A stretch of 38,629 bases of DNA from a virus: the IMG/VR virus record IMGVR_UViG_3300027861_000006, positions 1-38,629 of that record; one strand, given 5' to 3'. Of the stretch, positions 5,043 through 24,227 are shown piece by piece. Made by a program: the position numbers and the translations under genes. The notes beneath the pieces are model-generated. The model was not told the DNA's origin, ran no database searches, and saw nothing but the letters and a program-made list of their open reading frames with translations. Position 1 is the first letter of the stretch; the number at the start of each line of letters is the position of its first letter.

Positions 5043-5075
5043 TTTATTATATTTCCTTTATTTTATTGTAATTAA

Positions 5076-6338: not shown

Positions 6339-6352
6339 AAATCACCTCTTTT

Positions 6353-6914: not shown

Positions 6915-7197
6915 TAACAACCTCCTCTTTAGGATTAATTAATGCTGCAGCTTTTCTTTCCAATAAAACTGCCTGTGCTTTACAGAAATTTTGGAATCCA
7001 ACCATTACAGTTTCAGCATCTCCATCGTCAAGCCCCTCTACAAGAACGGCGGTACTTAATTTAAGACTTACGCCACCCGCTATACCCCTTTGCTTAACCT
7101 CGACACTTTTAAGACGCTCTGCGCCCCTTAGAAGAGCTTTCGCTTTTCTTACTTTTGCATTAATTTCTGCAAACATGTCTGTTTGTTTTGCTTCCAT
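6901..7197 (-). CDS. Hypothetical protein (98 aa)
   Basis: Co-oriented. Its stop overlaps the ssb start. Confidence 0.5.
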   Translation of the reverse strand: MEAKQTDMFAEINAKVRKAKALLRGAERLKSVEVKQRGIAGGVSLKLSTAVLVEGLDDGDAETVMVGFQNFCKAQAVLLERKAAALINPKEEVVNVNN

Positions 7198-7223
7198 TTG
7201 GTTTTTTTCTCCTTCTGTTAAAA

Positions 7224-7667
7224 TTAAAAAATGACTAACTTTTCTGCTTTCTCGTAAAAGATAACAATCTCTGCTGAGAAATTACCTTTTTCATAACCAC
7301 CGCCTAATTCAAGGATAGGCACTTCCTGCCAACAATCATCATGGATAATCTTATTGTCAACAAGAAGATCCATTATTGATTCAGCCTTATTAGTTAAATC
7401 TGTTTTACGCCTATCTCCAAAACTAAATTTAATAATAATTTTAGAGATGCTTTCAATAGCTCTACCTTTTCTTGGTTGAGACAATAACTCACTACTTGCT
7501 GACTTATGCCAATCTTTATGCTTAGACGAAGGTAATAGCCAAAACAGTTGCCCTTTAGGCTTGTGACCGCCTATCTTTATTCTAATGTTTTTCCAGTTAG
7601 GAATTATCTGCTTGGAATTTTTCTTAGATGGAATACGGCCTGTTAAGGTGTATCTGATTGACTCCAT
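7224..7667 (-). CDS. rusA: RusA-family Holliday-junction resolvase
   Basis: IPSKKNS aligns with E. coli RusA PPSNNRYY. DRRKTDLTNKAESIMDLLVDNKIIHDD aligns with [27 protein letters not shown] (recalled sequence). Confidence 0.8.
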   Translation of the reverse strand: MESIRYTLTGRIPSKKNSKQIIPNWKNIRIKIGGHKPKGQLFWLLPSSKHKDWHKSASSELLSQPRKGRAIESISKIIIKFSFGDRRKTDLTNKAESIMDLLVDNKIIHDDCWQEVPILELGGGYEKGNFSAEIVIFYEKAEKLVIF

Positions 7668-8393
7668 TTATGACCTCACTATTTGAGTTTGAGTCTTTTT
7701 AATTTTAACACCGGGAATAGTCATAACACCTTTAGAGGCTTTTACCATTGCTTTAAGAGCAGGTACATTAATCCCAATTAAATGGCTTGTTAATGAGTTT
7801 TCAAGAAGAAACGGTATTGCTTTAAAATGATCTTCCACCTCAACCACATAATCAGTTCGGTAGCTTACACCTGAAACTTTCTCCTGCTTAATTTCAGTCG
7901 CAACGGTTGTAGTCGCTTCTTCAATCTTATCCTCCATTCGAGCTTGGGCTTTTTCGGCCAACTCTTCTTTGCCTTCAGATTGATACTTTTCAATTTTAGC
8001 AGCTTCAGCTTCAGCAGCCTTTTCAGCCTTACGCCTTTTCTCTTCAGCTTCGGCTTCAAGCTTTTTTTGTTCAAGAGCTATTCTACGCTTTTCGGCATTG
8101 TCAAAATCAATCATTGCACTGCCAATCTTATCTTTACCTGCTTTTAGCTGATTAAGAACGTTCATAAACTCTTTTTGAATAACCTTCCTTTTTTCGTCAA
8201 AAGGTTTAACGGCTTCTTTTCTAAGAGCCTCTACAGTTTTGATAGCACCTTGTACATCTCTTTGAATACCCCCTGCATTCAAATTCTGCTCTGCATTTGT
8301 AATCTCAATCTCTTCAATTGAGCTAAGTGTTTCAAGAGCAGTCTTCATCTTATCAAGAGTCTCTTGAGCTATTAGGTTTTTTTCTTCTGACAT
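7668..8393 (-). CDS. Coiled-coil phage protein of unknown function (E/K/A-rich centre)
   Basis: 241-aa ORF abutting rusA. Lies in the recombination module. Confidence 0.6.
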   Translation of the reverse strand: MSEEKNLIAQETLDKMKTALETLSSIEEIEITNAEQNLNAGGIQRDVQGAIKTVEALRKEAVKPFDEKRKVIQKEFMNVLNQLKAGKDKIGSAMIDFDNAEKRRIALEQKKLEAEAEEKRRKAEKAAEAEAAKIEKYQSEGKEELAEKAQARMEDKIEEATTTVATEIKQEKVSGVSYRTDYVVEVEDHFKAIPFLLENSLTSHLIGINVPALKAMVKASKGVMTIPGVKIKKTQTQIVRS

Positions 8394-8396
8394 AAT

Positions 8397-8867
8397 TTAT
8401 CCCTTCTTTTGGGTTAGTTTATATTGTTCATGTATTGGATTAATCTCTACACCTAGATGGTCTATAATTAAAGGTATCACCTCTCCTAATGGCCTGCAAG
8501 CCCTGCCTGTAGAACTTTTTTGACAAGGTACAGACGCATCGTCTAAAGCGTTAAGCCAGTTTTTTTCGTGAACTTTAATAGCTTTAATAGTACGTGTTTC
8601 TAAATTATGCAGATCGCTAATAGTATTGTTGATGTCACATTTTAACGATGTAACCTGCATCGCAGTATTTTTTCTTAACTCCTCATTGTCAGCCTTTAAT
8701 GCTCCGGTTTTAATTAATAATTCACTGACACCTTCAGCAAGGCGATAGTGATCATGCTCAGCACCGTTTAACTTTATATCTATCTTTTTAAGCCTTGACC
8801 AATTCAAAGCAACTTGTAGCACAATTAGTCCAATTATCATAAATAATAAAACTTTAAACACATCCAT
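8397..8867 (-). CDS. N-terminally membrane-anchored coiled-coil protein
   Basis: TM segment VLLFMIIGLIVLQVAL followed by helical sequence. Confidence 0.5.
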   Translation of the reverse strand: MDVFKVLLFMIIGLIVLQVALNWSRLKKIDIKLNGAEHDHYRLAEGVSELLIKTGALKADNEELRKNTAMQVTSLKCDINNTISDLHNLETRTIKAIKVHEKNWLNALDDASVPCQKSSTGRACRPLGEVIPLIIDHLGVEINPIHEQYKLTQKKG

Positions 8868-8875
8868 ACTCTCTC

Positions 8876-9481
8876 CTACTTTCCAAACGCTTTCAACACG
8901 TTTAATAATGATAAAAATTTATTAAAATCTGTCTTCTGATTAAATCGTTTTTCAACTTCATAACCGTTCTCAAAAATTCTTACTGCAAAACGGTGTCCAA
9001 TTTTCCTGATACCTAATTTCTCCATCCTTAATTTTTCATAAGCAGCAGTTTGTATTTTGGCTGTCTTTGGCATTGAAACAGAAGACTTCCAATCTAGCAT
9101 TAATGGCAGTTTTTTAAACAGTCCACCAAGATCCCAAGTTCCACAATATCCATATATTTTTGAATAGTGCATAGTCTCAGTTTCTTCAACTGTTATATCT
9201 TTATTGTAATCTGCCATAAACTTATCAACACCTTTAACCCACGGTTTCATTTGAGGGTCATAGGTAACGGTTTTACCCAACATCATAGCTTCCGCAATAG
9301 TATGCAAGGCTTTGCCGAAATTAGAGGCCGTATCACCCTTTACAAAGAAGCCCCCTGACACTGGATTAAACGGTGCTTCATCATTGTCTCTCACACCCAC
9401 CCTGCTCATAACTTGGGTTACAGACGGTACGATTTTGCCGTTGTATTTGTAGGTGTGAGTTAACTCTTCAAATTCAAGCAA
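8876..9481 (-). CDS. PD-(D/E)XK (RecB/Cas4-like) exonuclease, partner of RecT
   Basis: HTY..PSVTQV N-terminal motif, GKALHTIAE, GTWDLGG ... LMLDWKSS (D...D-x-K) and QTAAYEKL (QxxxY). TTG 9481 overlaps the stop of the upstream ORF. The 9565 start would add an implausible hydrophobic extension. Confidence 0.6.
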   Translation of the reverse strand: MLEFEELTHTYKYNGKIVPSVTQVMSRVGVRDNDEAPFNPVSGGFFVKGDTASNFGKALHTIAEAMMLGKTVTYDPQMKPWVKGVDKFMADYNKDITVEETETMHYSKIYGYCGTWDLGGLFKKLPLMLDWKSSVSMPKTAKIQTAAYEKLRMEKLGIRKIGHRFAVRIFENGYEVEKRFNQKTDFNKFLSLLNVLKAFGK

Positions 9482-9665
9482 ACCGAACCACCATTCCAAC
9501 AACCCAAGCAACAACTGATATCGCCCATAATACAACAAGTATCCTATAAACAATATACCACACACTAAAATATTTGTTATAAAGGTTCATTGGTCCATTA
9601 AGGATTGATATCAAAAGAGCAAGTAATACCATTACTAAAGATGATAATTCCATTAAATTTTCCAT
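9474..9665 (-). CDS. Small two-TM membrane protein
   Basis: Two hydrophobic helices. Start abuts the recT stop. Confidence 0.4.
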   Translation of the reverse strand: MENLMELSSLVMVLLALLISILNGPMNLYNKYFSVWYIVYRILVVLWAISVVAWVVGMVVRFA

Positions 9666-10693
9666 TATTCCTTCCCCATAAAAACGTCAACGATAGAAGA
9701 AAGTTTTTTCTCGTCAACACTTTCAATATCGGTAATTTTAAATTCATTCTCTAAAACTATAGCAATCTCTTCTAATGATTGGCCAGTAATTTTAATCAAC
9801 TTATCCATGTTTGGGGTTTTCACTTCTTCAAAATCACCTTCAACTACTGGTTGTGACACTTCGGGTTTTGTGGACTCTCTTTTCTCAGAAGGCTTACTTA
9901 CCTTGTCTGCAATCTCTTGATAGTCAGAGTCAACTAACTCTTCCATACCTTTTGGGGTATCAAACTGAGGGTTTCCTGCATCACTCAACTCTTCCATTTT
10001 AACCATTGTTGCAAGATTAGGATTATCGAAAGACTGAGGGAGCTGATTACAATGTCTTCTGATTGCAGTTTTCTCAGCCATTTCATCTTCATTATTTGCC
10101 CAAATATTTTTAGACTTAGCAGCATTTTTTATTTTAGTAACTTTGTAATAAGGCAATACCCTTACATCTTTAGAACCATCTTCCATAAACGCAACCGTTA
10201 AAACACATTTAGGATTACCTCTACTTTCACTAAAGCTAGGGGTGTAGCTATATGATACTTCACCGTCAATTTCTTCATAAGTAAAGTCGTCATCATCAAA
10301 AATAACTTTAGCGGTCATATTTTTCATTCCTGCATTTTTACAGAGCTTCTGAAGGCCTTTGTATCCCGCAATTAGAGTTACCATAACACCTTTAATATCG
10401 TAACCGTCAGCATCTTTACCTATCTTGCAATTGAACCCAACAAGGTAAGCCTCTTTTTTCTGTGGTTCAAAAGATAAACCCATACTACTTGCAAGGTAAA
10501 CTGCATTTAAAACACTACTCGGAACCAAGTTCTGAGCATCTTTTAAGTTTTTAATTACACTGTCAACAGCCGTTACGATATGTCTGTCCACACTGTAACC
10601 ACTCGGTACAACAGCAGCAATAGCATTCTTAAAATCGTCTGCTCTCATTCTTTCAATGAGAGTTAGCTCTTTTTTATCTTTCTTCTCAGGCAT
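9665..10693 (-). CDS. recT: RecT-family single-strand annealing recombinase
   Basis: FKNAIAAVVPS...R, LNAVYLASSMGLSFEP..KEAYLV and an acidic C-terminal tail match RecT-family hallmarks. Confidence 0.8.
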   Translation of the reverse strand: MPEKKDKKELTLIERMRADDFKNAIAAVVPSGYSVDRHIVTAVDSVIKNLKDAQNLVPSSVLNAVYLASSMGLSFEPQKKEAYLVGFNCKIGKDADGYDIKGVMVTLIAGYKGLQKLCKNAGMKNMTAKVIFDDDDFTYEEIDGEVSYSYTPSFSESRGNPKCVLTVAFMEDGSKDVRVLPYYKVTKIKNAAKSKNIWANNEDEMAEKTAIRRHCNQLPQSFDNPNLATMVKMEELSDAGNPQFDTPKGMEELVDSDYQEIADKVSKPSEKRESTKPEVSQPVVEGDFEEVKTPNMDKLIKITGQSLEEIAIVLENEFKITDIESVDEKKLSSIVDVFMGKE

Positions 10694-10731
10694 AACGCCT
10701 CCTTTTTTAAAATGTTTTAATCTTAACTTTT

Positions 10732-10757
10732 CGGTAGGTAAGGCAAGCTTACCACCG
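10732..10757. promoter_or_regulatory. 10-bp stem hairpin (one bulge) in the gap upstream of recT
   Basis: CGGTaGGTAAG-gcaag-CTTACCACCG. No U-run follows on the coding (minus) strand, so it is not a canonical terminator. Confidence 0.3.
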
Positions 10758-10772
10758 AGGCATTATAGGCGA

Positions 10773-11018
10773 TTATTCTCCGCCACAGTGTTCGGTAGCT
10801 TCATCACTGGGATTTCTTGGTGCACTACTAACCCATTCAAGGCCATCATAAACTACAGGGAAATAAACTCTAGTTTCAGACCAAGCTGTAAAAGGCTTGC
10901 CTTCACTTCCACCATACCTACTATCAAATTTTTTATTCATTTCTTCTTCTGTAAGAGTGTTAGCAATTAACACATCCCCATCAAGTGCATCGTTGATTAA
11001 TTCTTTCCAAGTTGACAT
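10773..11018 (-). CDS. Hypothetical protein (81 aa)
   Basis: Co-oriented ORF. Confidence 0.5.
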   Translation of the reverse strand: MSTWKELINDALDGDVLIANTLTEEEMNKKFDSRYGGSEGKPFTAWSETRVYFPVVYDGLEWVSSAPRNPSDEATEHCGGE

Positions 11019-11086
11019 ACCTTCTCCTTTTTGTTTGAATGGAAGTGAGAGCCAACCTATTAAAATGCTCCCACCTCCTTTTATTG

Positions 11087-11359
11087 TTAAAATAATCTTC
11101 TGTAATTTCTTTCAAATCGGCAAGAATATTTTTCTTCACCCATAATTAATACTGATTCAGTCATTTCTATAAATGGTATATTGTCAGCATAATATGTAGT
11201 CACTTTGCCTCTTTTAATTCTTGCACATCTACTCATAATATCTATGACTGGTATCTTATCTTTTTTCCAGTAATCTTTAAGGGCATCCATAATACATTCT
11301 TCTTCTTTTTTTACAAGCTTCTTTAAACTTTTAGCAATTATGCCTAACGTAGAATTCAT
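11087..11359 (-). CDS. Hypothetical protein (90 aa)
   Basis: Co-oriented ORF just downstream of dnaB. Confidence 0.5.
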   Translation of the reverse strand: MNSTLGIIAKSLKKLVKKEEECIMDALKDYWKKDKIPVIDIMSRCARIKRGKVTTYYADNIPFIEMTESVLIMGEEKYSCRFERNYRRLF

Positions 11360-11368
11360 ACAACCCCC

Positions 11369-12697
11369 TTAAAATTCGTCTTTATTACCATAATCAATAT
11401 CTCTAAAGGTTGTTATTGGCCCTTCAAACACTACTTCGCAACTAATATCAGTCGGGCCATTCCTTTGCTTTGCAATAATTATTTCAGCCTTACCTTTATC
11501 TGACGCATCCTTAGAATAGACCTCGTGACGATAAGGAAAAAGTATCATATCTGCATCTTGTTCTATTGATCCTGAGTCTTTCAAGTCCGATAGCTTAGGC
11601 CTCCTACTGTTTAACGGGCGGTTTTCTAAAGCCCTATTTAATTGTGAAAGTGCTATGATAGGAATATTGAATTCTTTAGCTATTGCTTTTAAAGTGCCTG
11701 TGATTTCGGTGATCCTTCTTACAGGCTCTTGATTTTTTACCAGACCTTTCATTATTTGCAAATAGTCTATAATGCCAAGCCCTACATTGTGTTTCCTAAT
11801 TAACCTTCTTAACTTGCTTCTAAATGTTACTATGTTTAAGTACCCATCATCATCAACATAGATTGGTAACGATGCTACTTGAGTTGATACTCTGTTTATT
11901 GTTTCAAACTCACGATCATTTACAAGGCCATTTCTAATCTTAAATAGTGGCACATTCGCTAATTTGGACTGTATTTTTTGAGTTAGTTGAATATTAGGCA
12001 TTTCAACACTAAAGAAAGAAGCTGGAACACCGCAATATTCGGCAATATTTAATGCTAAACTTGTCTTGCCCATGCCCGGCCTTGCCGCTATAATAACCAA
12101 GTCTCCACCATGAAAGCCACCTGTTAATTCGTCTAACTTTTTGAAGCCAGTAGGTATCTCAGGTATACCACCCCTTTTCCTAGCCTCACTTATATTTTTA
12201 AGAGACGGGCCTATAGTTTCCGATAAATGTACCGCCTTAGTTTTTTCATTCTTCTCACAAATGCTTTGTATTCCGCTCTCTATCCCCCCTAAAAGCTCTA
12301 CAGGATCAACTTTTGGATCATAAGCACACGTTAAAGCATTATTACACGTTTCTATAATCCTTCTGACATCAAATTTACCCTGAACTATCTCAATATGGGT
12401 CGATAAATTCAAAGTTGTGGAAACCTCACTCATTAATTCACTGAAATACACGTCTCCACCCGCCTCTTCGACCTTCTGAGAGGCTTTAAGATGATTTCTA
12501 ACCGTGAGCAGGTCTATTTCTTTTGACGAGCTATAAAGGGCTTCTATGGCGTTCATAATTAATCGGTTTTTTGAAGAGTAAAATATTTCACAATCAATAT
12601 CTTCGATAAAATCGTCAATTATCTTCGGAGAAACTAAAAGCGATGCTATTATCGACTTTTCTGTTTCTATTGAGCTTGGTGGTATTTTTAGGTTCAT
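11369..12697 (-). CDS. dnaB: Replicative DNA helicase DnaB
   Basis: N-terminal PPSSIETEKSIIASLL, Walker A AARPGMGKTSLALNIA, DYLQIM, ALSQLNRALENR and SGSIEQDADMILF. Confidence 0.95.
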   Translation of the reverse strand: MNLKIPPSSIETEKSIIASLLVSPKIIDDFIEDIDCEIFYSSKNRLIMNAIEALYSSSKEIDLLTVRNHLKASQKVEEAGGDVYFSELMSEVSTTLNLSTHIEIVQGKFDVRRIIETCNNALTCAYDPKVDPVELLGGIESGIQSICEKNEKTKAVHLSETIGPSLKNISEARKRGGIPEIPTGFKKLDELTGGFHGGDLVIIAARPGMGKTSLALNIAEYCGVPASFFSVEMPNIQLTQKIQSKLANVPLFKIRNGLVNDREFETINRVSTQVASLPIYVDDDGYLNIVTFRSKLRRLIRKHNVGLGIIDYLQIMKGLVKNQEPVRRITEITGTLKAIAKEFNIPIIALSQLNRALENRPLNSRRPKLSDLKDSGSIEQDADMILFPYRHEVYSKDASDKGKAEIIIAKQRNGPTDISCEVVFEGPITTFRDIDYGNKDEF

Positions 12698-13227
12698 GAA
12701 ATTCTCTCATTAATTATGTCAGAAATAAGATTTTTAGCTATTTCAAGTTGAACACGATTAGAAGTTTCTTTTTCAAGAGCTTTGATTTTTAAGTTTTTAA
12801 CTAATCGCCTCTCTTGGTTAAGTTCAACTGAAGTCTTATTAACCTCTGCTGTTAGTTGTCCAATAAGCTCACCATTATTATAATTATCTGTTTTTAAGTT
12901 ATTTCTATCTCTTGCAGCTTCCGAATAAGAATCTTGGGTACTTTTAAGAGCTTCCCTGAGTTCTAGGTTAAGACTTTCAAGTCTCTTATTCTCTTTTTCT
13001 AATTCTTTTTTCAACATACACTCTCTCCTTTTTAAATGTTGAGCATTAATGAATATTTCAAAACTATTCATTGCAGAAAGTATTGTTGTTGGCAAATCAG
13101 ATACTTTATCGTAAATATCATCTCTATTGTCTTCATTGCTCAATTCATTTACAAACCAATCGTAAAAATTTCCAAGGTTATCCCAACCATCTTCTCCATC
13201 AACTTCCCACGGTTTTTTTATACTCAC
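12694..13227 (-). CDS. Acidic N-terminus plus coiled-coil protein between the replisome organizer and DnaB (helicase-loading partner?)
   Basis: ATGA overlap with the dnaB start. No P-loop is visible. Confidence 0.55.
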   Translation of the reverse strand: MSIKKPWEVDGEDGWDNLGNFYDWFVNELSNEDNRDDIYDKVSDLPTTILSAMNSFEIFINAQHLKRRECMLKKELEKENKRLESLNLELREALKSTQDSYSEAARDRNNLKTDNYNNGELIGQLTAEVNKTSVELNQERRLVKNLKIKALEKETSNRVQLEIAKNLISDIINERIS

Positions 13228-13258
13228 AATTTCTCCTTTATTTTTACTTTACTACGCG

Positions 13259-13894
13259 TTACGAATAATCTTCAATCGAGCCTGCTTTGTTATACTGCGA
13301 GGACTCATTATTATTACCATTGCTATTAAAATCGTTACCTTCCCAAGTAATTACACACTGTTTCCAATTAGTAATCTTTGTTTTACCTCGATACCAATTA
13401 CTAGCTTCATAGTGTGCAACAAACTTTTCTGCATCGATGGAGTTGTTTCTCTCTTTGCAGTAAACTCTAACTTCTTCTACTGTTGGCTTTTGGAAAACTT
13501 TCTTTGTATACTTTCTTTTACTTAAGTTAGTATTACTTAAAGGTAAAGTATTACTTGATGCCGGTTCCACCGTGGTGGTAAAACCCATAGCTGGTTCACA
13601 TAGTTGTGGTTCTGAGAATATTTCATAGTTATATGTGAATTGACCATGTTCTCCATGCACCTTAGTTCTTTCGAGATAACCTTTTTCTTCTAACTCTTTT
13701 AATCCTGACTTAACAGCCTCTTTTCCATCTTTAGCACTCTTAACAATTTCGCTTGAAAAGAATTTCCAGCCATCAGGTTTAGACATAAGATGTAAATATA
13801 TACCCTTTGCCTTAAATGATATTTCTGAATTTGAAACAATATTATTTGAAACTTGAGTAAAATTAGTTTCAATTCGGTTTATTAGACTACTCAA
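13259..13894 (-). CDS. Replisome organizer / replication initiator (winged-helix N-domain)
   Basis: TTG start 7 nt after AAGGAGG. N-terminal F.QV.N......IS.KAKGIYLHL.S..DGW and ...GL.ELE.KGYL, plus a C-terminal YC.ER...IDAEKFV.HYE..NW...K..I.NWK motif. These are typical of phage DnaD/organizer proteins (from memory). Confidence 0.6.
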   Translation of the reverse strand: MSSLINRIETNFTQVSNNIVSNSEISFKAKGIYLHLMSKPDGWKFFSSEIVKSAKDGKEAVKSGLKELEEKGYLERTKVHGEHGQFTYNYEIFSEPQLCEPAMGFTTTVEPASSNTLPLSNTNLSKRKYTKKVFQKPTVEEVRVYCKERNNSIDAEKFVAHYEASNWYRGKTKITNWKQCVITWEGNDFNSNGNNNESSQYNKAGSIEDYS

Positions 13895-14045
13895 AAGTAA
13901 CCTCCTTAAATAAGAAGAGAGCCAATACCATAAGTGACAGATAAGGAATTGGATACCTTATAATTTTATGATATGACTCTCTTTGATTTTTAACATTTTA
14001 ATTTCCAATTTCAAGTGGTTTGTAAAGCCTGTCACAACTTCTACA

Positions 14046-14079
14046 GTAACAATATAACATCAAAGCACCAATTGTGCAA
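14046..14079 (-). promoter_or_regulatory. Promoter for the replication module; copy C of the conserved TTGGTG-N8-TTATATTGTTAC element
   Basis: On the minus strand: TTGCAC-17 nt-TATATT, with TTGGTG-ctttgatg-TTATATTGTTAC embedded. About 150 nt upstream of the organizer gene. Confidence 0.5.
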
Positions 14080-14082
14080 CGA

Positions 14083-14355
14083 TTATTTTTTAAAAAGTTT
14101 TTCTCTTACTTTTTTACTCATTAAATTCACCGCTTTTCTCCATGAATCGGCGCTTGTATGCCCTACACCATCGATATAAGCAGTGTAGGTTGTCGTGTAT
14201 TCTGTAGCGTTCGAGAACCTTACTGTTTTTTGTGCAGAACAATAGTTATCTCCTATCTTTGACGCTAATTTATTAAGATCATTTTGCGCTTCTTTGCGAT
14301 CGTATTCTTTAGTTTCAACCGTTTTTGGTTGCCTTTTGTTATCCATTTCTTTCAA
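14083..14355 (-). CDS. Hypothetical protein (90 aa)
   Basis: Co-oriented ORF. Confidence 0.5.
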   Translation of the reverse strand: MKEMDNKRQPKTVETKEYDRKEAQNDLNKLASKIGDNYCSAQKTVRFSNATEYTTTYTAYIDGVGHTSADSWRKAVNLMSKKVREKLFKK

Positions 14356-14596
14356 CCTCTTGAACTTTCTTTTTCGCTAATTTAACACTCTGGAGAATAT
14401 CTTTATACACTCCAAGACTCTCAAGTGCTTTGAGCAGTTTATATTTATAATCTTCTGTTAGTTTCAAATGACCGCTTAAGCGTGCTCTAAGAGTTATGAC
14501 ACTTTTGCTACCAATACTCTTTGAGACACGCTCGAATCCTGCTACAGATACAAGCTTTTTAATTTGGAGTTTTGAAATTTCTATCTTTTTAGTCAA
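14339..14596 (-). CDS. Small basic, possibly DNA-binding protein (85 aa)
   Basis: Co-oriented and overlaps both neighbours. Confidence 0.5.
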   Translation of the reverse strand: MTKKIEISKLQIKKLVSVAGFERVSKSIGSKSVITLRARLSGHLKLTEDYKYKLLKALESLGVYKDILQSVKLAKKKVQEVERNG

Positions 14597-15146
14597 TGGA
14601 TATCTCCCCGCATTCTAAAACTCTATGGAATTTATTTGCAATATTAACATTACCCTTTGTGAGCAACTTCTTTTTTAACGTCTTGCTACAATTCTCACTA
14701 TGCATTGCATGAGATAATACATAGTAGAGTTGTTGTATTATTTGCTTATCATCATAGCCGCCCTTTAAATCTCCACAGTGTAGGGGCATACATGAGAAAT
14801 CTAAATTCGAATCACTCAAATTCGAACCTCTCAAATTCGAACCTCTCAAATTCGAACCTCTCAAGTCCGAATAACTCAAGTCCGAATAACTCAAGTCCGA
14901 ACCTCTCAAGTCCGAATAACTCAAGTCCGAATAACTCAAGTCCGAACCTCTCAAGTCCGAACCTCTCAAATTCGAACCTCTCAAATTCGAACCTCTCAAA
15001 TTCGAACCTCTCAAGTCCGAATATCTCAAATCCTTATTTTCTTTAATCGCATCCAGCAGACATCCTTTTGTTGTTTCAAACTCCCCACTATGAATAACTA
15101 ATCCGTTATCCCATCTTTTGATTTCTTCATAGAGTTGTTTCATCAT
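14589..15146 (-). CDS. Pentapeptide-repeat protein (16 consecutive [DN]L[RS][GY]S units)
   Basis: DLRYS DLRGS NLRGS x3 DLRGS DLSYS x2 DLRGS DLSYS x2 DLRGS NLRGS x2 NLSDS NLDFS, flanked by non-repetitive N- and C-terminal domains. Confidence 0.85.
   Translation of the reverse strand: MMKQLYEEIKRWDNGLVIHSGEFETTKGCLLDAIKENKDLRYSDLRGSNLRGSNLRGSNLRGSDLRGSDLSYSDLSYSDLRGSDLSYSDLSYSDLRGSNLRGSNLRGSNLSDSNLDFSCMPLHCGDLKGGYDDKQIIQQLYYVLSHAMHSENCSKTLKKKLLTKGNVNIANKFHRVLECGEISID
14801..15025. repeat. Tandem array of 15-bp units (three near-identical unit types) encoding the pentapeptide repeats
   Basis: Units tcaaattcgaacctc / tcaagtccgaataac / tcaagtccgaacctc lie back-to-back with no spacers. Confidence 0.95.
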
Positions 15147-15417
15147 TTACCCTCATTCCGCTCAATATATCATTCACCACACCAATGCAGGTAACAGTAT
15201 ACAGACCATTCTCCTTACGAAGCGATTTAAGCCCATCTCGCACCGCTTCCCACTCTTCTATAGTCAAGTCCACACCCCTTTTAATAATGCCTCTTAACAT
15301 GCTTCCAATCGTCTTTGGGTCGTCAAGTTCAAACCCTTCCAATACACAATCCTCTAAATGTTCAACGACTTTCAATCTTGAAATCATACTGGCACTTGAA
15401 TTTTCTTTATTACTCAA
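15127..15417 (-). CDS. Hypothetical protein (96 aa)
   Basis: Co-oriented ORF overlapping the start of the pentapeptide gene. Confidence 0.5.
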   Translation of the reverse strand: MSNKENSSASMISRLKVVEHLEDCVLEGFELDDPKTIGSMLRGIIKRGVDLTIEEWEAVRDGLKSLRKENGLYTVTCIGVVNDILSGMRVNDETTL

Positions 15418-15437
15418 AATAAAACTCCTTTTAATTA

Positions 15438-15551
15438 TTAGTTACCTACAATAAAATATCTTAACATACTACCAATCGCTACAGCCGCCAATATCAAAGC
15501 AGAATAAGCAATTAGCTCGTACATAATATCACCTAATTTTCTATCTCTCAA
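15438..15551 (-). CDS. Possible 37-aa single-TM peptide (not in the ORF track)
   Basis: TTG start 8 nt after AAGGAGG. Translates as MRDRKLGDIMYELIAYSALILAAVAIGSMLRYFIVGN. Confidence 0.3.
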   Translation of the reverse strand: MRDRKLGDIMYELIAYSALILAAVAIGSMLRYFIVGN

Positions 15552-15566
15552 AACCACAACCTCCTT

Positions 15567-15695
15567 TTAACGTTTACTCTTCTTGCAACTCTCACGCCAG
15601 ATCTTTGCATAGTAATACACAAAGGCACTTAGAGTGATACCCATCTTTAAAGCAAGTTTAATCTGCTTTATATTCTGCTTTCTTAGTTTACGCAT
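15567..15695 (-). CDS. Possible 42-aa basic peptide (not in the ORF track)
   Basis: ATG start. Translates as MRKLRKQNIKQIKLALKMGITLSAFVYYYAKIWRESCKKSKR. Fills the gap between neighbouring genes. Confidence 0.25.
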   Translation of the reverse strand: MRKLRKQNIKQIKLALKMGITLSAFVYYYAKIWRESCKKSKR

Positions 15696-15714
15696 TTTGA
15701 TTAACTTTCTTTGT

Positions 15715-15975
15715 TTAAATAATAGACATACTTATTTTTATGTCATCGATTAGTTGATAGTATACTTGGTTGCTTTTCCAAGAGTTAGCATAGGCTGTTG
15801 TCCTGCTTGCTCTACTGGAATTAAAAGGGTCTGTGTTAAGCTCTCTTTCTAATGCTTTATTTAACTGCTTTCGAGTTGATATAGCAGAGGCAACCAATTT
15901 TTTAATATACTGCAACCTCTCTATCTCATCCATTTTGGCAGTGTGCTTATGCAATAGTTCTCGCTTAAGACTCAT
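15715..15975 (-). CDS. Hypothetical protein (86 aa)
   Basis: Second gene of the leftward early operon. Confidence 0.5.
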   Translation of the reverse strand: MSLKRELLHKHTAKMDEIERLQYIKKLVASAISTRKQLNKALERELNTDPFNSSRASRTTAYANSWKSNQVYYQLIDDIKISMSII

Positions 15976-16198
15976 GTGTAAAACCCTCTTTAGTTAAGCT
16001 TTCTTTAATCCAATCAGCGTTTTCAATAGCAGTGTGAGTGTCCCAACCGTTAGACTCTTCTACTTTTGTTTCTGAAACAGTAACAACACCATTCTTATCT
16101 GCCTTTGCAAATGTTCCAAAAGTGCTATTTACATAGTTAATTACATCCTGCATCCACTCAGTATATTCTGCTGTAAGTTTGATTGTTGTTGTTTTCAT
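15965..16198 (-). CDS. Small acidic hypothetical protein, first leftward early gene
   Basis: First ORF downstream of the leftward promoters. Confidence 0.5.
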   Translation of the reverse strand: MKTTTIKLTAEYTEWMQDVINYVNSTFGTFAKADKNGVVTVSETKVEESNGWDTHTAIENADWIKESLTKEGFTHES

Positions 16199-16243
16199 CT
16201 TAATTTCCTTTGTTATTGTTTGTTGCTCAATTCCTATACCAAT

Positions 16244-16272
16244 AAGATACCATAATTCTAAGCAAAAGTCAA
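16244..16272 (-). promoter_or_regulatory. Leftward sigma70-like promoter (TTGACT-17-TATCTT)
   Basis: -35 at 16267-16272 and -10 at 16244-16249 (minus strand), with an exact 17-nt spacer. Confidence 0.5.
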
Positions 16273-16299
16273 CACTTTTTATACAAAAAATGTAAATAA

Positions 16300-16328
16300 A
16301 TTATACAGTGTAGATAAGAGTAAGGCAA
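16300..16328 (-). promoter_or_regulatory. Second leftward sigma70-like promoter (TTGCCT-17-TATAAT)
   Basis: -35 at 16323-16328 and a consensus -10 at 16300-16305 (minus strand). Confidence 0.5.
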
Positions 16329-16363
16329 GAGCTTGAAAGTTTTTTTGAGAAAGTTTAACTTAT

Positions 16364-16405
16364 TTGGTGGGAATTGGTTATATTGTTATTACTTCTAAGT
16401 TGCGG
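16364..16405 (+). promoter_or_regulatory. Copy A of the conserved promoter-like element (TTGGTG-N8-TTATATTGTTATTAC) plus the downstream TAAGTTGCGG box
   Basis: Same architecture as copies at 14046-14079 (minus) and 17233-17285 (plus). Heads the rightward genes. Confidence 0.45.
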
Positions 16406-16532
16406 AACTAAAGAATCAAATTATTTATAGGGTTATTAGATATGTATACAGGCATCCGCAACGCCTTTGCATATTGAAAGCCCTTGTTATTAAGTTTGCG
16501 GGAGCTTTGTTATAAAAAATAAAAAACTATAC

Positions 16533-16563
16533 CTATCACTCGCCGTATTACATATAGTGATAG
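16533..16563. promoter_or_regulatory. Inverted repeat CTATCACT-N15-AGTGATAG in the leader of the first rightward gene
   Basis: Perfect 8-bp arms. Either an operator-like palindrome or a leader hairpin. Confidence 0.35.
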
Positions 16564-16608
16564 CGGTTGTTTTGGGGCTGTGTTCTACTTTGTTTATGGG
16601 GGTTTGAG

Positions 16609-16905
16609 ATGCTTGGAGGAATAGCTTACATTATTCATGGTGTTATAGTTGAGGCTAGTAAGGCCGTTGAGGAGGCTGAAAGGCAAGCCATCAGAGCAGC
16701 GGAGTCAAGGGAACATGCCTTTCAAAAAAAATGGGATAAACAGACTCAAGAACTTTCAAGGCCTATTGGTTATACTAGGCACATAAAGAAACAAGCAGAG
16801 ATTAAACTATTCGGCAAGCAATTGAACTTAACCAAAGAAGACACGGGTGAAAGAGGTCTTAAATATTATGAGTTGAAGGACTATTTGAAGGGGTTGGAGA
16901 GATGA
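16609..16905 (+). CDS. Hypothetical protein, first rightward gene (hydrophobic N-terminus, helical basic remainder)
   Basis: ATG 16609 lies after GGGGGTTTGAG. The upstream extension to 16567 lacks an RBS. Confidence 0.5.
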   Translation: MLGGIAYIIHGVIVEASKAVEEAERQAIRAAESREHAFQKKWDKQTQELSRPIGYTRHIKKQAEIKLFGKQLNLTKEDTGERGLKYYELKDYLKGLER

Positions 16906-16994
16906 ATAAGGTGAAATGTCCTAAATGTGGAAGTGAGAATGTTGAGAGTACATGCATCGGTAGGGTTTGTGATTGGGAGGCTGAATGCAATTAG
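16902..16994 (+). CDS. 30-aa zinc-ribbon peptide (CPKC ... C...C..C), not in the ORF track
   Basis: ATGA start/stop coupling with the upstream gene. The downstream ATG 16985 overlaps it. Confidence 0.35.
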   Translation: MNKVKCPKCGSENVESTCIGRVCDWEAECN

Positions 16995-17212
16995 TAATAA
17001 AAAGAAGTGAATTAATTCATTGCAAAGATAAGTCTGTGTATAACAACAATGTCTATTTGGTTGAGGGTATATATAAAATAAAAGAAGTTTGTGATGAGGA
17101 CTATAATTGTTGCACTTACTACTTGCTACATAACGATGAGTGGATTTTTATCGGATGTAGTGAGGATTATCTTGATGATATAAAGATTGACTTTTTGTTA
17201 ATGCACACCTAA
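16985..17212 (+). CDS. Hypothetical protein (75 aa)
   Basis: Last gene before the non-coding island. Confidence 0.5.
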   Translation: MQLVIKRSELIHCKDKSVYNNNVYLVEGIYKIKEVCDEDYNCCTYYLLHNDEWIFIGCSEDYLDDIKIDFLLMHT

Positions 17213-17232
17213 TTAATCTTTTCCCAACACTT

Positions 17233-17285
17233 GTTGGTTAAATTTGTTATATTAGTAATTACAAATAGATTAAGTTAAGCGCAAA
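17233..17285 (+). promoter_or_regulatory. Copy B of the conserved promoter-like element (TTGGTT-N7-TTATATTAGTAATTAC) plus a TAAGTTAAGCGG box
   Basis: Shares TTGGTk, TTATATT, GT.A.TAC and TAAGTT..GCGG with copies A and C. No ORF lies downstream. Confidence 0.4.
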
Positions 17286-17386
17286 TAAGAATTGAGAACT
17301 GGCGACTCAATCACTTAATCTTGAAAGGTTCTATATAGTAACAGGATAAGCTTAGAAACGTTCCTGAGAACCATAGAGCCTTTTTT
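17262..17386 (+). ncRNA. Candidate ~125-nt structured non-coding RNA or leader (two hairpin domains ending in U6)
   Basis: Domain 1: AGAUUAAGU (17266-74) pairs with ACUUAAUCU (17313-21), with an inner AUUGAG/CUCAAU stem. Domain 2: GGUUCU..CAGGA pairs with UCCUGAGAACC (17327-17372). T6 lies at 17381-86. Confidence 0.3.
17327..17386 (+). terminator. Possible conditional intrinsic terminator
   Basis: GGUUCUAU (17327-34) can pair with AUAGAGCC (17373-80; 8 bp, one G-U) directly before UUUUUU. Alternatively it pairs with the adjacent AGAACC (17367-72). Confidence 0.3.
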
Positions 17387-17405
17387 AATACCCTTTAAGC
17401 CCACT

Positions 17406-17414
17406 TGATATAAT
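17406..17414 (+). promoter_or_regulatory. Perfect extended -10 promoter element TGATATAAT
   Basis: Exact TGnTATAAT match about 20 nt after the U-run. Confidence 0.4.
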
Positions 17415-17470
17415 ACCAACCCAAATACACCACAGCACACCCAAGCCTATCCTAAACATCTCTAAACCCC

Positions 17471-17660
17471 TTTATATACTTATATATTATTATATATATA
17501 TTATATATAGTTATTTATTATTAATACTTAGTTATAGTGTTATTTATATATAATATCTAAATATTATTATTACGTTCATACATGCATATACAAGTACCTA
17601 TTGTAATTTTGTTTTTAGTTATTTTTAGTTAGTTTCTTATGTATTGTTTTAGATACTTTA
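17471..17660. other. About 190 bp of almost pure A/T; candidate DNA-unwinding element
   Basis: TATA-type runs and a tandem TTTTTAGTTA x2 at about 17612-17634. Very few G/C. Confidence 0.4.
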
Positions 17661-17665
17661 AGTGC

Positions 17666-17705
17666 AGATTGACCAGTGACAACACCAATAGGTGCCTGTC
17701 AATCT
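17666..17705. other. Hairpin AGATTGAC-N24-GTCAATCT (extendable with a bulge to GCAG/CTGC)
   Basis: Perfect 8-bp inverted repeat immediately after the AT block. Confidence 0.4.
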
Positions 17706-17739
17706 CACTGCATACAAATACCTATATGTCTATTAAGAA

Positions 17740-17748
17740 TGTGGATAA
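17740..17748 (+). promoter_or_regulatory. Perfect DnaA-box 9-mer (TGTGGATAA = complement of TTATCCACA)
   Basis: Exact match. Two one-mismatch copies in the same orientation lie at 17967-17975 (TGTTGATAA) and 17988-17996 (TGTGGATAC). Confidence 0.35.
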
Positions 17749-17806
17749 CTCCCAAAAATAGCGTCTGGATCAATTTAAGCACAAAAAGCGCTGGGAGGCA
17801 TTTAAT

Positions 17807-17923
17807 GTGAAAAAAGGCGTTATTGTGACAGTGGTTGGGTTTTTACTATGTTTTAGGCCATTATGCATGTCGCATAGTAACTATTATGTAAACTTTATTG
17901 CATTAATTGAAGATTTTAGTTGA
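17807..17923 (+). CDS. Possible 38-aa hydrophobic peptide inside the island
   Basis: GTG start 8 nt after GGGAGG. Translates as MKKGVIVTVVGFLLCFRPLCMSHSNYYVNFIALIEDFS. No other support. Confidence 0.2.
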   Translation: MKKGVIVTVVGFLLCFRPLCMSHSNYYVNFIALIEDFS

Positions 17924-17995
17924 TTTCTTGATGTTTTTGTATTAATTTAATTAATATAAATAAAATGTTGATAACTTGTTGGTATGTTGTGGATA

Positions 17996-18010
17996 CCCCC
18001 CCCCACCCCC
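17996..18010 (+). repeat. C9-A-C5 homopolymer tract (G-tracts on the minus strand), with a second CCCCAACCCC at 18051-18060
   Basis: Read directly. Stands out in an AT-rich genome. Confidence 0.9.
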
Positions 18011-18074
18011 AAAATTGAGGATGGAGGCTTAGGAAAAGTTTTGGACTAGTCCCCAACCCCGTAAGTATGAAAAC

Positions 18075-18350
18075 ATGAACATATGCAAAAAGGAGTATGG
18101 CATAGTGAAAAAAGAAAACACAAAAACTTTTAAAGACTTAATGTCTGAGTGTGAAAAGGCTCCTGAACCTCTTTATGTTTCGTATGAAGCGTTTCATGAT
18201 GATAAAACTTTTGAAGTGCGGGTGTATTTTATTTGTGGTGTTTACATAGCAATGTCGAATCACGAGGGTGGTGATTGTTGGGAAGATGAAGGTGCGTATT
18301 CATTTTTAGATTTCGATCTTTTTAAAAAAGATTTTGGGATAAAGGATTAA
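18075..18350 (+). CDS. Hypothetical protein; start may be GTG 18105 (9 nt after AAGGAG)
   Basis: First ORF after the island. Confidence 0.5.
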   Translation: MNICKKEYGIVKKENTKTFKDLMSECEKAPEPLYVSYEAFHDDKTFEVRVYFICGVYIAMSNHEGGDCWEDEGAYSFLDFDLFKKDFGIKD

Positions 18351-19290: not shown

Positions 19291-21138
19291 ATGTCATTTG
19301 ATATTACTGAAGATAATTTTAAGAAGCATGAAAAGGAGCTTACGGCTCTTTTGGCTGATCAACTTAACAGCTATTATAAGTCTAGTTGCTATAAGCGTCT
19401 CGAGGGGCGTTATTTTCGTTTAAAAGACTCTGTGGATATGAATTTTCATGGTAATGCTAATCGGAGTCGAAGTGTAAGTCGAACTAGAAATGCCTCTAAG
19501 AGTAGGATGAACTTTGCGTTAGTGAAACAACGGACTATTTTAAGAAGAGCGATTTTATCGCAGAATTCCCGGGGTGAACCTTTAGCGACAACTGAGCCTA
19601 TTGGTGCTACCACTATGGAAGCTGCAAACAACATTCAAGATGTTGTAAATATGAATTTAAAAAGTACTGAGTTTCGTGCAAAGGCTTTTTTAGCTATTAA
19701 AGACGACACTTCTGTGTTTGGTGCATCTGTGGCTTATACGTCATGGAGAGAGAGTTCAAAACAGGCTAAGAAGACAGTTGCGTCAAAGATAGGCCCTAGA
19801 AGAGAGCTTGTAAGGACCACTAAAAAGAATGCTGTTAATCATGCCATTAATGTTCTTGATTATTTTCAAGATCCAAAAGTTTCTGATCCTGACGATTCAG
19901 ATTATCAAGGTCACATAGAGAGAATTAACCTATCCAAACTTGTTGCTGCTGTAAAAATGAACCCTGAGGCTTATATTACTGCTAATGTTGAGCAGATAAT
20001 TGAAAGAGCTAAAAAGGAATCGATACAAGATAAGAATTACCATGATAAAACTGTGGACAGTTCTATTTCGAGTAAAAGGTTTGAGATAGATAGACAGATT
20101 TTTTATTCTACTTGCAATATTAAGGGAAATGAGGACAATAGTAATTTTTATTATGTTGAAATGATTGCAGGAAAAATTGTTCGCTTTCAAGAAAACCCTC
20201 ACGACAACGATATTCGACCTTATGCGGTATTTACTTTTTATCCACGAAGAGAAGTGTGGTGGGGTAATTCTGACGCTGAATTCGTACTACCTCACGAAAA
20301 ATATACTAACCTGATAATGGGTATGAAAGCTGATAAAGCACTTCAATCTCTTCAGAGCTACTTGTTTTATGAAAAAGGTACTATTGACGTAGCTGATTGG
20401 AATAATCGACATAAGAATGGTGGTTTTGTTGGAGTTAATACAGGCGGCAATCAAAATCTTTCTCAGTTATTGTACCAAGTGCAGCCACAAGATCAATCCT
20501 TAAACACTACTGACTCGATTATGAGAGAAGTTAAGGAGAATGAACAGAAACTTACTCCAAGACCTGACCTATCAAGGGCTGCTAAAAGCGGAGGTCTACA
20601 AAACACTACTGCTACTGCTGCAAATATCCTTGATGAACAGGGTGATGTTGTAGAATCAGAGATATTAGAGAACTTTACTTTCGGATTAAAACGATTAATT
20701 AGAAATAATGTGATTATTCTTCAACAGAGACTTTCAGACGAGTTTGCTATTAGGCCAAAACCTAACGAAGCACAAAGAAAATTGATGAAAGAGGAAATAT
20801 TAGGCGATGTTGATTACCATATTGAGACAAGTTTAAATAAAAACAAAGCTACTGAGCTGTTAAGGCTACAAAACCTAATTACAATGTTTATGAACTTCAA
20901 GGGTAGTGGTGATCCAGCATTAGCACAACTTGATTTAACAGGTATTTTCAAAAAATTACTAAAACAGGCTGATATTGGGGATGTAGACGAGTTATTTCCC
21001 ACTCAGCCACAACAAGAGTTGCCGGGCGCAGTGCCAAGTGACCCACAAGCTCCACAGGGGGCCGATTTAGGGCAGGCAGGCGCAGTACAGGAACTCACAC
21101 CACCCCAAACACAGGAAGGGGCTTTAAATGAGGCTTAG
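19291..21138 (+). CDS. Portal protein (candidate)
   Basis: 615 aa, first large virion gene. Followed by scaffold-like and capsid genes as in T7-type order. P/Q-rich disordered C-tail. Family not verified. Confidence 0.6.
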   Translation: MSFDITEDNFKKHEKELTALLADQLNSYYKSSCYKRLEGRYFRLKDSVDMNFHGNANRSRSVSRTRNASKSRMNFALVKQRTILRRAILSQNSRGEPLATTEPIGATTMEAANNIQDVVNMNLKSTEFRAKAFLAIKDDTSVFGASVAYTSWRESSKQAKKTVASKIGPRRELVRTTKKNAVNHAINVLDYFQDPKVSDPDDSDYQGHIERINLSKLVAAVKMNPEAYITANVEQIIERAKKESIQDKNYHDKTVDSSISSKRFEIDRQIFYSTCNIKGNEDNSNFYYVEMIAGKIVRFQENPHDNDIRPYAVFTFYPRREVWWGNSDAEFVLPHEKYTNLIMGMKADKALQSLQSYLFYEKGTIDVADWNNRHKNGGFVGVNTGGNQNLSQLLYQVQPQDQSLNTTDSIMREVKENEQKLTPRPDLSRAAKSGGLQNTTATAANILDEQGDVVESEILENFTFGLKRLIRNNVIILQQRLSDEFAIRPKPNEAQRKLMKEEILGDVDYHIETSLNKNKATELLRLQNLITMFMNFKGSGDPALAQLDLTGIFKKLLKQADIGDVDELFPTQPQQELPGAVPSDPQAPQGADLGQAGAVQELTPPQTQEGALNEA

Positions 21139-23030: not shown

Positions 23031-24227
23031 ATGGCAACTCAACAGACACCTTTTGTACCTCAAGACCCTTCGGCTACAGGGTTACAGGGAAGAACAGTAA
23101 ATGATGAAATTAGAAACCTTATTCCCGGCAACTCACCGCTATTAGAGCTTGTTGCAGTTGGTGTTGCGCAAGACGGTAAAGTGAAAAAATCAGCGGGAAT
23201 GATTAGTAAACAGGCTACAGATACAGTAAGATTTGAAGCTTTCACACATACACCACCTGGCTATCTTCAGACTGTTGCAACTAAAACAAGTGCTCTTGTT
23301 TATACGTTTGCAAGTGTTGCTGAAATTTATGTTAGAATGGTATTTGAAAATACTGCTAACAAAACCGTTGGTGTAGTTTCAGCTATTTCAAGTACAAGTG
23401 TTACTTTTACCTCTATTGGTTCAACTGCCTTTTCTGCTGTTGCAGGTGACGTTTTAATGCGTCTTGGTAACGCTTATGAAGCCAATTCAAGCGATCCTGC
23501 TTACTTGCAGAAAGACGATGATAACATTTACAATATGTGTCAGACTTTCCGTTTTCCAACAGCAGCTTCAAATTCACAGATTGCTACAAAACAGGTTGCA
23601 GGTGGAGATTTCTTTCAGAGAGCTTCTAAGTATGCAATGATTGAAGGTATGCGTGATATTGAAAGAGCGTTTCTTTTTGGTAAAAAATCTTCAAGTGGTA
23701 ATACTACTGAGATTAGTGATATTAGTAAAAACGTAGCGACTACTGAAGGTCTATGGAATCAGTCAGGTGTTGTATTTGATGCAGGTGGAAACATGACTCC
23801 GTCAAAGCTCTTTAAGGATATTCCAAACAAAATGGACTCTTCTGTAGGCGATATGGACCGTGTTATTATGCTGACTTCTAAGAAACAGCGTACTAACCTT
23901 CTTGAACAGCAGCAGGACAGTATTCGTATTGACCAAAAATCTGATCCTAAAGAATATGGTGTTAAAATCCCAATGTTTATGACAGGTGGACCAAACATTG
24001 AAATTCGTTCGCATGATGCGTTTAACAATGCAGGACACGAAGACGAAGGACTTATTTTCCTTCCTGAGCGTCTTAAATATCGTTACCTTAAAGGTAGAGA
24101 TATTGCACCAAACAAAGATATTCAGTCTAATTCTACTGATGGTAAAATTGACGAAATCTTTGGTGAAGTTGGATTGCAGAATGACGATGGTGGTGTGTCA
24201 ATAATGAGACTTATTAACATGTCTTAA
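23031..24227 (+). CDS. Major capsid protein (candidate)
   Basis: 398 aa. ATG lies 7 nt after AAGGAGG. Directly follows the scaffold-like gene and is followed by the clearest intrinsic terminator in the window. Confidence 0.7.
   Translation: MATQQTPFVPQDPSATGLQGRTVNDEIRNLIPGNSPLLELVAVGVAQDGKVKKSAGMISKQATDTVRFEAFTHTPPGYLQTVATKTSALVYTFASVAEIYVRMVFENTANKTVGVVSAISSTSVTFTSIGSTAFSAVAGDVLMRLGNAYEANSSDPAYLQKDDDNIYNMCQTFRFPTAASNSQIATKQVAGGDFFQRASKYAMIEGMRDIERAFLFGKKSSSGNTTEISDISKNVATTEGLWNQSGVVFDAGGNMTPSKLFKDIPNKMDSSVGDMDRVIMLTSKKQRTNLLEQQQDSIRIDQKSDPKEYGVKIPMFMTGGPNIEIRSHDAFNNAGHEDEGLIFLPERLKYRYLKGRDIAPNKDIQSNSTDGKIDEIFGEVGLQNDDGGVSIMRLINMS

Follow-up and report, generated by a model that had tools for sequence, protein, structure and literature searches.

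A putative four-module control region between the early and late genes of an uncultured phage

What lies between the early genes and the virion genes of a phage where no protein appears to be encoded? The question is raised by the IMG/VR virus record IMGVR_UViG_3300027861_000006, of which the whole stretch of 38,629 nt (the window) was analysed, and in which an island at 17213-18074 separates the rightward early genes from about 25 kb of virion genes. The original prediction had described this island as free of open reading frames (ORFs) of 60 amino acids (aa) or more and dense in signals, and had proposed that it is the origin of replication, the late-transcription switch, or both. The island indeed holds no such ORF, the longest being 46 aa in genetic code 11, and all of the listed signals are present: a copy of the phage's promoter-like element, two hairpin domains ending in a U-run, a perfect extended -10, a G-poor CA tract, an A/T-rich tract, a long hairpin, DnaA-box-like 9-mers and C9/C5 tracts. 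From comparisons with related contigs we read the island as the hub of cis-acting control in a lytic-type phage that relies on the host RNA polymerase, composed of four evolutionarily separable modules, and we assign this reading a probability of roughly 55%. The proposed late switch finds support in a different form, as a conserved promoter with an operator, and the proposed origin is plausible on circumstantial grounds. A feature of this kind is ordinary for phages; this instance is new and unusually elaborate, and it looks like an ordinary control region and not like a structured antitermination RNA.

A conserved non-coding island

The first late ORF is more likely to start at GTG 18105, which follows AAGGAG (18090-95) after an N9 spacer, or at ATG 18141, the start in the ENA gene call. 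With the GTG start the gap extends over ~892 bp (17213-18104) and is the largest non-coding stretch of the genome, the second largest being 368 bp. To place it among relatives, eight related contigs were collected from portal homologs and more distant ones from a profile scan. The portals of the relatives are 47-72% identical to that of the window, and the gap is kept at the same place (L002-L009); every relative that covers the region shows a large gap, behind which come several small ORFs, one ORF of ~185 aa and the portal gene. In BLASTN comparisons, 17353-18125 of the window aligns to L003 with 68% identity and 17447-18124 to L002 with 62% identity, and the part 17867-18090 also aligns to L005 and L006. 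One and the same piece of island DNA gives translated matches in more than one frame and on either strand. The conservation is therefore at the level of DNA and not codon-like.

It is very improbable that the island conceals coding sequence, either as a micro-ORF at 17807-17923 (+) or as a gene in another genetic code. The micro-ORF would encode a hydrophobic peptide of 38 aa behind a Shine-Dalgarno-like GGGAGG-N8-GTG, and its counterpart in L003 (1809-1907 of that contig) shows 77% amino-acid identity. However, its mismatches are distributed 5/6/6 over the three codon positions, the same stretch reaches equal scores when read in other frames or on the opposite strand, it is kept only in L003 and gone from L002 and beyond, and its 3' half coincides with the operator block described below, which is conserved also where no ORF exists. 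Genetic codes 4, 15 and 25 likewise reveal no hidden long ORF, only stop-free stretches of 90-120 aa. The multi-frame and both-strand matches, the 5/6/6 pattern and the loss of the micro-ORF in L002 thus mark the island as genuinely non-coding and under selection.

Late promoter, operator and early terminator

Just upstream of the late operon, module 3 (17868-17948) carries a sigma70-like promoter at 17920-17948 (+), with a -35 TTGATT (17920-25), a 17-bp spacer and a -10 TAATTT (17943-48). It is conserved in 7/7 relatives with a spacing of 16-18 bp (17 bp in 5/7): alignments of six relatives show TTGnnn, a 16-17-bp spacer and TAnnTT, and L004 has TTGCGC-18-TATATT. Outside these seven, L008 has TTGACA-17-TATATT right after a reversed copy of the operator-like block, 25 nt before the first late ATG. 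This site is the probable late promoter, P_late. The operator-like block itself (17868-17906), whose dyad lies ~30 nt upstream of the promoter, reads TGTCG-CATAGTA-AC-TATTATG-TAAAC and continues into the palindrome TTATTGCATTAA of the pattern TTAnnn/nnnTAA; it is single-copy in the genome. The block is conserved in L002, L003, L005 and L006, and it is reversed in L009, L008 and L073, yet still near the head of the late operon. These flips of orientation are consistent with a site for a dimeric protein rather than with a promoter core or an RNA. Conservation across the relatives demonstrates this predicted pair of promoter and operator, with the small Cys-rich early proteins as candidate binders. 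Late expression would begin at the weak conserved sigma70-type promoter, and a dimeric DNA-binding protein would control it through the pseudo-palindromic block.

A pattern scan also recovered the block in two otherwise unrelated contigs. In L112, a 42-kb IMG/VR contig, it lies upstream of a Terminase_3 TerL, and in L089 (JBBACM010000030.1, a contig of a Candidatus Paceibacterota metagenome-assembled genome) it is followed by a TerS-like ORF, a homolog of the window's TerL and a P22-type portal. As it stands before late or packaging genes in both contigs, the block would be a portable control word that marks where such operons begin. The binning of L089 with a bacterium of the Candidate Phyla Radiation (CPR) is a possible hint at a host, binning being weak evidence.

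The late promoters of P2/P4 (Ogr/Delta) and of Mu (C, Mor) combine a weak sigma70 promoter and an upstream dyad with a small, often zinc-binding early protein. The phage resembles them in its weak -35 and -10 separated by 17 bp, in a dyad-symmetric site a few turns upstream that is found in either orientation, and in the small Cys-rich proteins beside the gap in the window, L002, L004 and L085. It differs from them in that its dyad is unrelated to TGT-N12-ACA, that the small proteins have no detected homology to Ogr or C, and that the site in L073 is downstream of a promoter. The Cys-rich, zinc-ribbon-like proteins are encoded at 16567-16905 in the window, at 3624-3800 in L002 and at 1699-1887 in L085, and that of L004 (3706-4032, -) is encoded inside the gap; they are not detectably homologous to each other.

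At the opposite end of the island, module 1 (17244-17386) begins with the promoter-like element TTGTTATATTAGTA (17244-17257, +), an extended -10 of TGn and TATATT. The motif has three copies with 0-1 mismatch, at 17244 (+), 16375 (+) and 14047 (-), all intergenic and aimed at downstream genes, the second being upstream of ORF 16567 and the third upstream of the initiator gene; the same place is taken by a -10-like element in two relatives, TGGTGTATATT in L002 and TATATAAT in L003. Two hairpin domains ending in a U-run follow. One is a 5' hairpin domain (17267-17321, +) of a short early-right 3' RNA, a candidate ~125-nt small RNA or 3' untranslated region, and the other is the intrinsic terminator t_R (17323-17386, +), in which a 12-bp outer stem AAAGGUUCUAU / AUAGAGCCUUU is followed by T6 at 17381-86. 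The RNA 17256-17392 has a minimum free energy of -28 kcal/mol (z = -2.6). The stem at 17323-17384 encloses a large loop and was therefore overlooked by a simple scan; a stable stem-loop directly before a U-run, the hallmark of intrinsic terminators, is nonetheless what the site has. Stems of 12-13 bp with a U-run, of other stem sequence, are found at the homologous site in L003 and L002, each of which also carries a 5' hairpin domain at the same place; this comparison of three genomes uses individual folds, as the three sequences align poorly.

The unit of promoter, ~125-nt RNA and terminator is present in the window, L003 and L002 and absent from L004, L005 and L008. Conservation of both sequence and structure demonstrates the predicted early-right termination step, so that module 1 would be the 3' end of the early-right unit, from which the ~125-nt RNA is possibly released. 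Early rightward transcription would come from the divergent promoter region (the copy at 16375) and from the internal copy at 17244, and would stop at the strong intrinsic terminator, leaving the two-hairpin RNA. The perfect extended -10 of the original prediction, TTAATA-18-TGATATAAT at 17385-17414 (+), is also there, with 10/12 matches and the TG present. As a conserved signal it was rejected, being specific to the window and not kept in L003 or L002.

The AT-rich module and the poly-C leader

Between terminator and operator, module 2 (17387-17760) opens with a G-poor, C/A-rich tract (17387-17470, +) made of CCCAAAT- and CCTAAAC-type words, with 3-4 G overall and 1-2 G per 40 nt, which would be rut-like (Rho utilisation) if transcribed rightward. 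Equivalent G-poor tracts, C-rich on the late-gene strand, occur in L003, L002, L004, L005, L008, L073 and L089. It is followed by an AT-rich tract (17466-17660), a candidate DNA-unwinding element whose core at 17472-17571 has 7% GC (genome ~37%). By nearest-neighbour calculation this core is the minimum of duplex stability in the whole genome, at -86.9 vs -127.4 +/- 6.9 kcal/mol per 100 bp, or ~5.9 standard deviations from the genome mean. AT tracts are found at the same place in L002, L003, L004, L005, L008 and L009, the contig of the last beginning inside the tract and showing the tract together with the motif GGTACYTAT. That motif, conserved as AGTACCTAT at the right edge of the AT tract (17593-17601), is found in 7/7 relatives covering that point, and a second copy of its type, ATACAAATACCTAT, lies at 17712. 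The long imperfect hairpin, an inverted repeat GCAGATTGAC ... GTCAATCTCACTGC at 17662-17713, has z values of -3.1 in the window, -2.6 in L003 and 0.2 in L002, and its arms are partly compensated in the alignment. Like the hairpin and the DnaA box, the conserved GTACCTAT belongs to this module. The perfect DnaA box TTATCCACA (17740-17748, -), inside a 17-mer identical in L003, lies 170 bp from the AT tract. Together with two one-mismatch boxes in module 4 (17966 and 17988) it makes three DnaA-like 9-mers in the island vs 0.36 expected (P = 0.01); such boxes are enriched in the window, L005 and L089.

Origins of the theta type (lambda ori, P1 oriR, iteron plasmids) combine an AT-rich unwinding element with DnaA boxes and iterons, and the lactococcal phage c2 has an intergenic, transcription-primed ori. 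The region of the phage is similar in that short repeats and a DnaA box accompany an extreme AT tract, with a promoter nearby; it occupies the largest intergenic region, near early promoters, of a genome that encodes an initiator, DnaB and SSB. It is unlike theta-type origins in the distance of its repeats from the AT tract, in their shifting positions and in the lack of DnaA boxes in several relatives. In favour of an origin here, the initiator gene itself holds no iteron array, the island has the G-poor tract, a DnaA box and TGTTG repeats, and a region of lowest helix stability, as expected of an origin, is found at 17472-17571. We read module 2 as the likeliest origin or unwinding element, on grounds that are plausible but circumstantial. 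It would most likely supply the unwinding element used by the phage initiator, DnaB and SSB, and would also shield the late operon from early read-through; a rut-like insulator role is an alternative that may hold and is compatible with the origin reading.

Module 4 (17966-18104) is a poly-C leader of ~150 nt in which three boxes stand at fixed spacing: C9-A-C5, a dyad and ATGAAAAYATG. It begins with the TGTTG repeats TGTTGATAA, TGTTGGTAT and TGTTGTGGATAC (17966-17996), which include the two one-mismatch DnaA-like boxes. GTTG occurs 5 times in the window's region vs 0.89 expected (P 0.002) and is enriched (P < 0.05) in 6/7 relatives, and the suffix of TGTTG is lineage-specific, either GAT/GAC or GCR. 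The boxes adjoining the poly-C were accordingly rejected as conserved DnaA sites: they are lineage-specific TGTTG repeats, and relatives have TGTTGCR. The alignments of relatives delimit an invariant element ATA-C9-A-C5-AAAATT (17993-18016). Its C9 and C5 tracts, at 17996-18010, form the only such run of the genome, C9 being its longest run of G or C. Seven relatives have C6-13, then A or T, then C5-6, and the orientation is poly-G in L073 and L085. At a distance of 33-37 nt from the poly-C follows the dyad GGACTAGTCC, then CCCCAACCCC (18043-18060). The dyad core ACTAGT is replaced by ACCGGT in L005, ACCGGC in L009 and AGCGGT in L004, such that the two central bases are TA in 4 sequences, CG in 3 and in none a single-step intermediate. 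The third box is TGAAAAYATGRCAATAWGCAAA, with the motif ATGAAAAYATG. The conserved TATGAAAACATGAACATATGCAAAA (18066-18095, +) runs into the Shine-Dalgarno AAGGAG of the first late ORF.

The leader shows no excess of folding (z = +0.57), and RNAalifold gives 0 pairs on the + strand and a weak fold of -6 kcal/mol with almost no covariation on the - strand. Since the leader lacks a consensus RNA fold and distant relatives carry the element in inverted orientation, the boxes would be read by a protein as DNA or as unstructured single strand, and not as folded RNA. The most concrete candidate role of the leader would be that of a site recognised for packaging (pac/cos), placed where the morphogenesis operon begins. 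A more specific proposal is doubtful: that the tripartite element (ATA-C6-13-A/T-C5-6-AAATTT, ~35 nt, GACTAGTC/GACCGGTC dyad, 17 nt, TGAAAAYATG) is a previously undescribed signal for packaging initiation or for control dependent on DNA structure (C-tract/i-motif or G-tract), shared by a clade of uncultured phages without a cultured relative, with the operator block as a regulatory word shared with unrelated phages including the CPR-binned contig. A G-quadruplex or i-motif from the core alone was rejected on inspection, most relatives lacking four tracts of at least 3 G/C in short loops. A scan of IMG/VR with the poly-C pattern yielded 63 loci, all by chance, none having a match to the portal or the wider profile. 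L073 begins with a C6 run (1-6) and has G5-A-G6 at 375-391; between these inverted G/C runs lie the reversed operator block, a consensus promoter and CA-type repeats. The possibility of an invertible segment was considered and set aside, as the window has no matching inverted run.

Alternative readings and genomic setting

In lambda, late control runs through pR', 6S RNA and tR' with Q, and HK022 uses put RNAs. By analogy, the promoter at 17244 could constitutively make a short RNA that stops at the terminator ending at 17386, until a Q-like or put-like modification of RNA polymerase allows read-through of ~700 nt into the late operon. Directly upstream of one very long late operon there is indeed a copy of the promoter, with a structured RNA of ~125 nt and a terminator behind it, in the window as in L003 and L002, so that the pR'-6S-tR' part of the original prediction holds as far as the existence of the unit in these three genomes. 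But the unit is not clade-wide, since L004, L005 and L008 lack it while keeping the CA/AT module and the late promoter; an independent conserved promoter with its operator is much closer to the late genes than the 17244 copy; and no Q- or N-like protein was found by Pfam or PHROGs among the island-flanking and early ORFs. The put-type logic fares worse, for the leader has neither a conserved two-stem-loop RNA nor a consensus structure on either strand, its poly-C is inverted in L073 and L085, and Rfam gives no credible match at gathering or E-value thresholds. Processive antitermination is therefore an unlikely account of the island. Whether module 2 acts as a transcription insulator alone, built from terminator, Rho-utilisation tract and AT-rich release zone and without a role in replication, is a separate matter, and possible, if hardly probable. 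A C-rich, G-poor tract of 80-200 nt is found in eight genomes, its C-rich strand is always the rightward RNA strand, and it directly follows the terminator or divergent promoters; at 17387-17470 it has the length of at least 70 nt on the RNA strand expected of a rut site. An insulator by itself, however, leaves unexplained the 7% GC tract with the global minimum of stability, GTACCTAT, the hairpin and the DnaA box.

A further alternative, about as probable, is that packaging starts, or the physical ends of the genome lie, in the island or its poly-C/dyad part (cos, pac or direct terminal repeat), with the poly-C and the GGACTAGTCC dyad as the site of terminase recognition and cleavage and the C/A-word tract resembling the repeats that flank the T7 terminal repeat. 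Known packaging signals include lambda cos (cosQ-cosN-cosB), herpesvirus pac1, in which C tracts flank an A/T element, and the T7 concatemer junction, where CCTAAAG-type repeats lie beside the terminal repeat. The phage element is similarly multipartite: its spacing is fixed, it has G/C runs and a core of partial symmetry, it stands in AT-rich non-coding DNA ahead of the morphogenesis genes, and C/A-rich short words are nearby. The poly-C is invariant within an otherwise AT-rich, fast-evolving region, the changes in the dyad are two-sided (ACTAGT to ACCGGT), and the element has no RNA fold and is flipped between strands in distant relatives. It stands at the head of the morphogenesis/packaging operon, and in L085 it is upstream of a recognisable TerL. 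In L089, 285-345 and 455-520 hold the block, four tandem TGTTGATAA/TGTGGATAA boxes with 11-bp spacing, G/C runs and a C-rich, G-poor tract, directly upstream of the TerS-like ORF and of a TerL homologous to that of the window, so that this regulatory grammar is found in a phage of another type as well. The circular assembly, moreover, fits packaging by pac, direct terminal repeat or cos. On the other side, a position in or beside the TerS gene is found only in the distant L085 and L089, the terminase genes being far from the element in this clade; L008 carries no poly-C; and no annotated cos or pac site was found to resemble the island in sequence. Four long contigs of relatives all run through the gap unbroken, an observation that carries no information where assemblies have been circularised.

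Several observations weigh against our own reading of the island as a control region in four modules. The TerS candidate and TerL of the window (2009-4241) lie 22 kb from the poly-C, and L008 does without that tract. The TGTTG repeats are not positionally conserved, some of them being the -35 element itself, and in the window they are ~350 bp from the AT tract; DnaA-like boxes are absent (0) from five relatives, and initiator sites set apart from the unwinding element are atypical for an origin. In L004 an inserted Cys-rich ORF of 108 aa separates modules 2 and 3, and in L073 the operator block is downstream of a consensus promoter, so that the protein binding it could be a repressor rather than an activator.

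The window closes into a circle, as bases 1-82 equal 38548-38629 exactly (an 82-bp overlap), giving a complete genome of ~38,547 bp. The early leftward module (4401-16198) encodes SSB, two exonucleases, RecT, DnaB and a DnaD/O-like initiator with an HTH_36 domain, and is split from the rightward arm by the divergent region 16199-16566. The rightward arm consists of two small ORFs (16567-17212), the island and ~25 kb of virion genes, among them an SU10-type portal (19291-21138) and an SU10-type capsid protein (23031-24227), and it finishes with the TerS candidate (2009-2629) and TerL (2616-4241). Pfam and PHROGs revealed neither a sigma factor nor an RNA or DNA polymerase among the phage ORFs, so that the host RNA polymerase and the host replisome should serve the phage. 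No relatives of the island or the portal were found among cultured phages by megablast, BLASTN and TBLASTN; the portal has no TBLASTN match in 50,697 phage records, and a GTDB scan with it gave zero matches.

TerL is so divergent that searches with Pfam, PHROGs, PDB sequences and hidden Markov models did not recognise it. A genome without terminase, in which the gap replaces it, was considered on that account and then rejected, because ORF 2616-4241 (+) proved to be the missing TerL. An annotated large terminase of a Manatee Spring podovirus matches it with 27% identity (E 4e-35), one homolog has PF04466 and another an intein, and the family has an ANKxGKT / WxDEPP consensus, with TerS-X-portal synteny in L089. 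The TerL of the window is at the far end of the late operon, away from the portal, and those of the distant relatives L085, L078 and L076 are just upstream of the portal. The intein-bearing homolog, P0081, has 895 aa with intein and LAGLIDADG domains (PF14890, PF14528). A comparison of TerS with repeat type gave no usable signal, the L089 protein being just 15% identical.

Other features of these genomes were also recorded. Within the divergent early promoter region, an inverted repeat at 16523-16573 (CTATCACT ... AGTGATAG) overlaps the beginning of ORF 16567 and resembles an operator that would act on early-right transcription. The early gene 14589-15146 (-) codes for a pentapeptide-repeat protein (PF00805, E 2e-39), whose repeats show at the DNA level as 14 overlapping units of 15 nt in tandem at 14773-15078. 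A late protein of 916 aa (35103-37853, +), probably a polyvalent virion protein that is ejected, contains an ART-PolyVal ADP-ribosyltransferase domain (PF18760). No tRNA is present in the window; L002 has a tRNA-Ser (anticodon TGA) at 3511-3592, among its early-right genes.

For a clade without a cultured relative, the island gives a testable map of the timing circuit. The map points to where early transcription would stop, to a probable late start with its 39-bp operator, and to the likeliest 100 bp for DNA unwinding. The poly-C/dyad element adds a sharply defined and strongly conserved signal, and the operator block, which recurs in otherwise unrelated phages, could serve metagenome searches for the starts of late operons or for phages that share a host.

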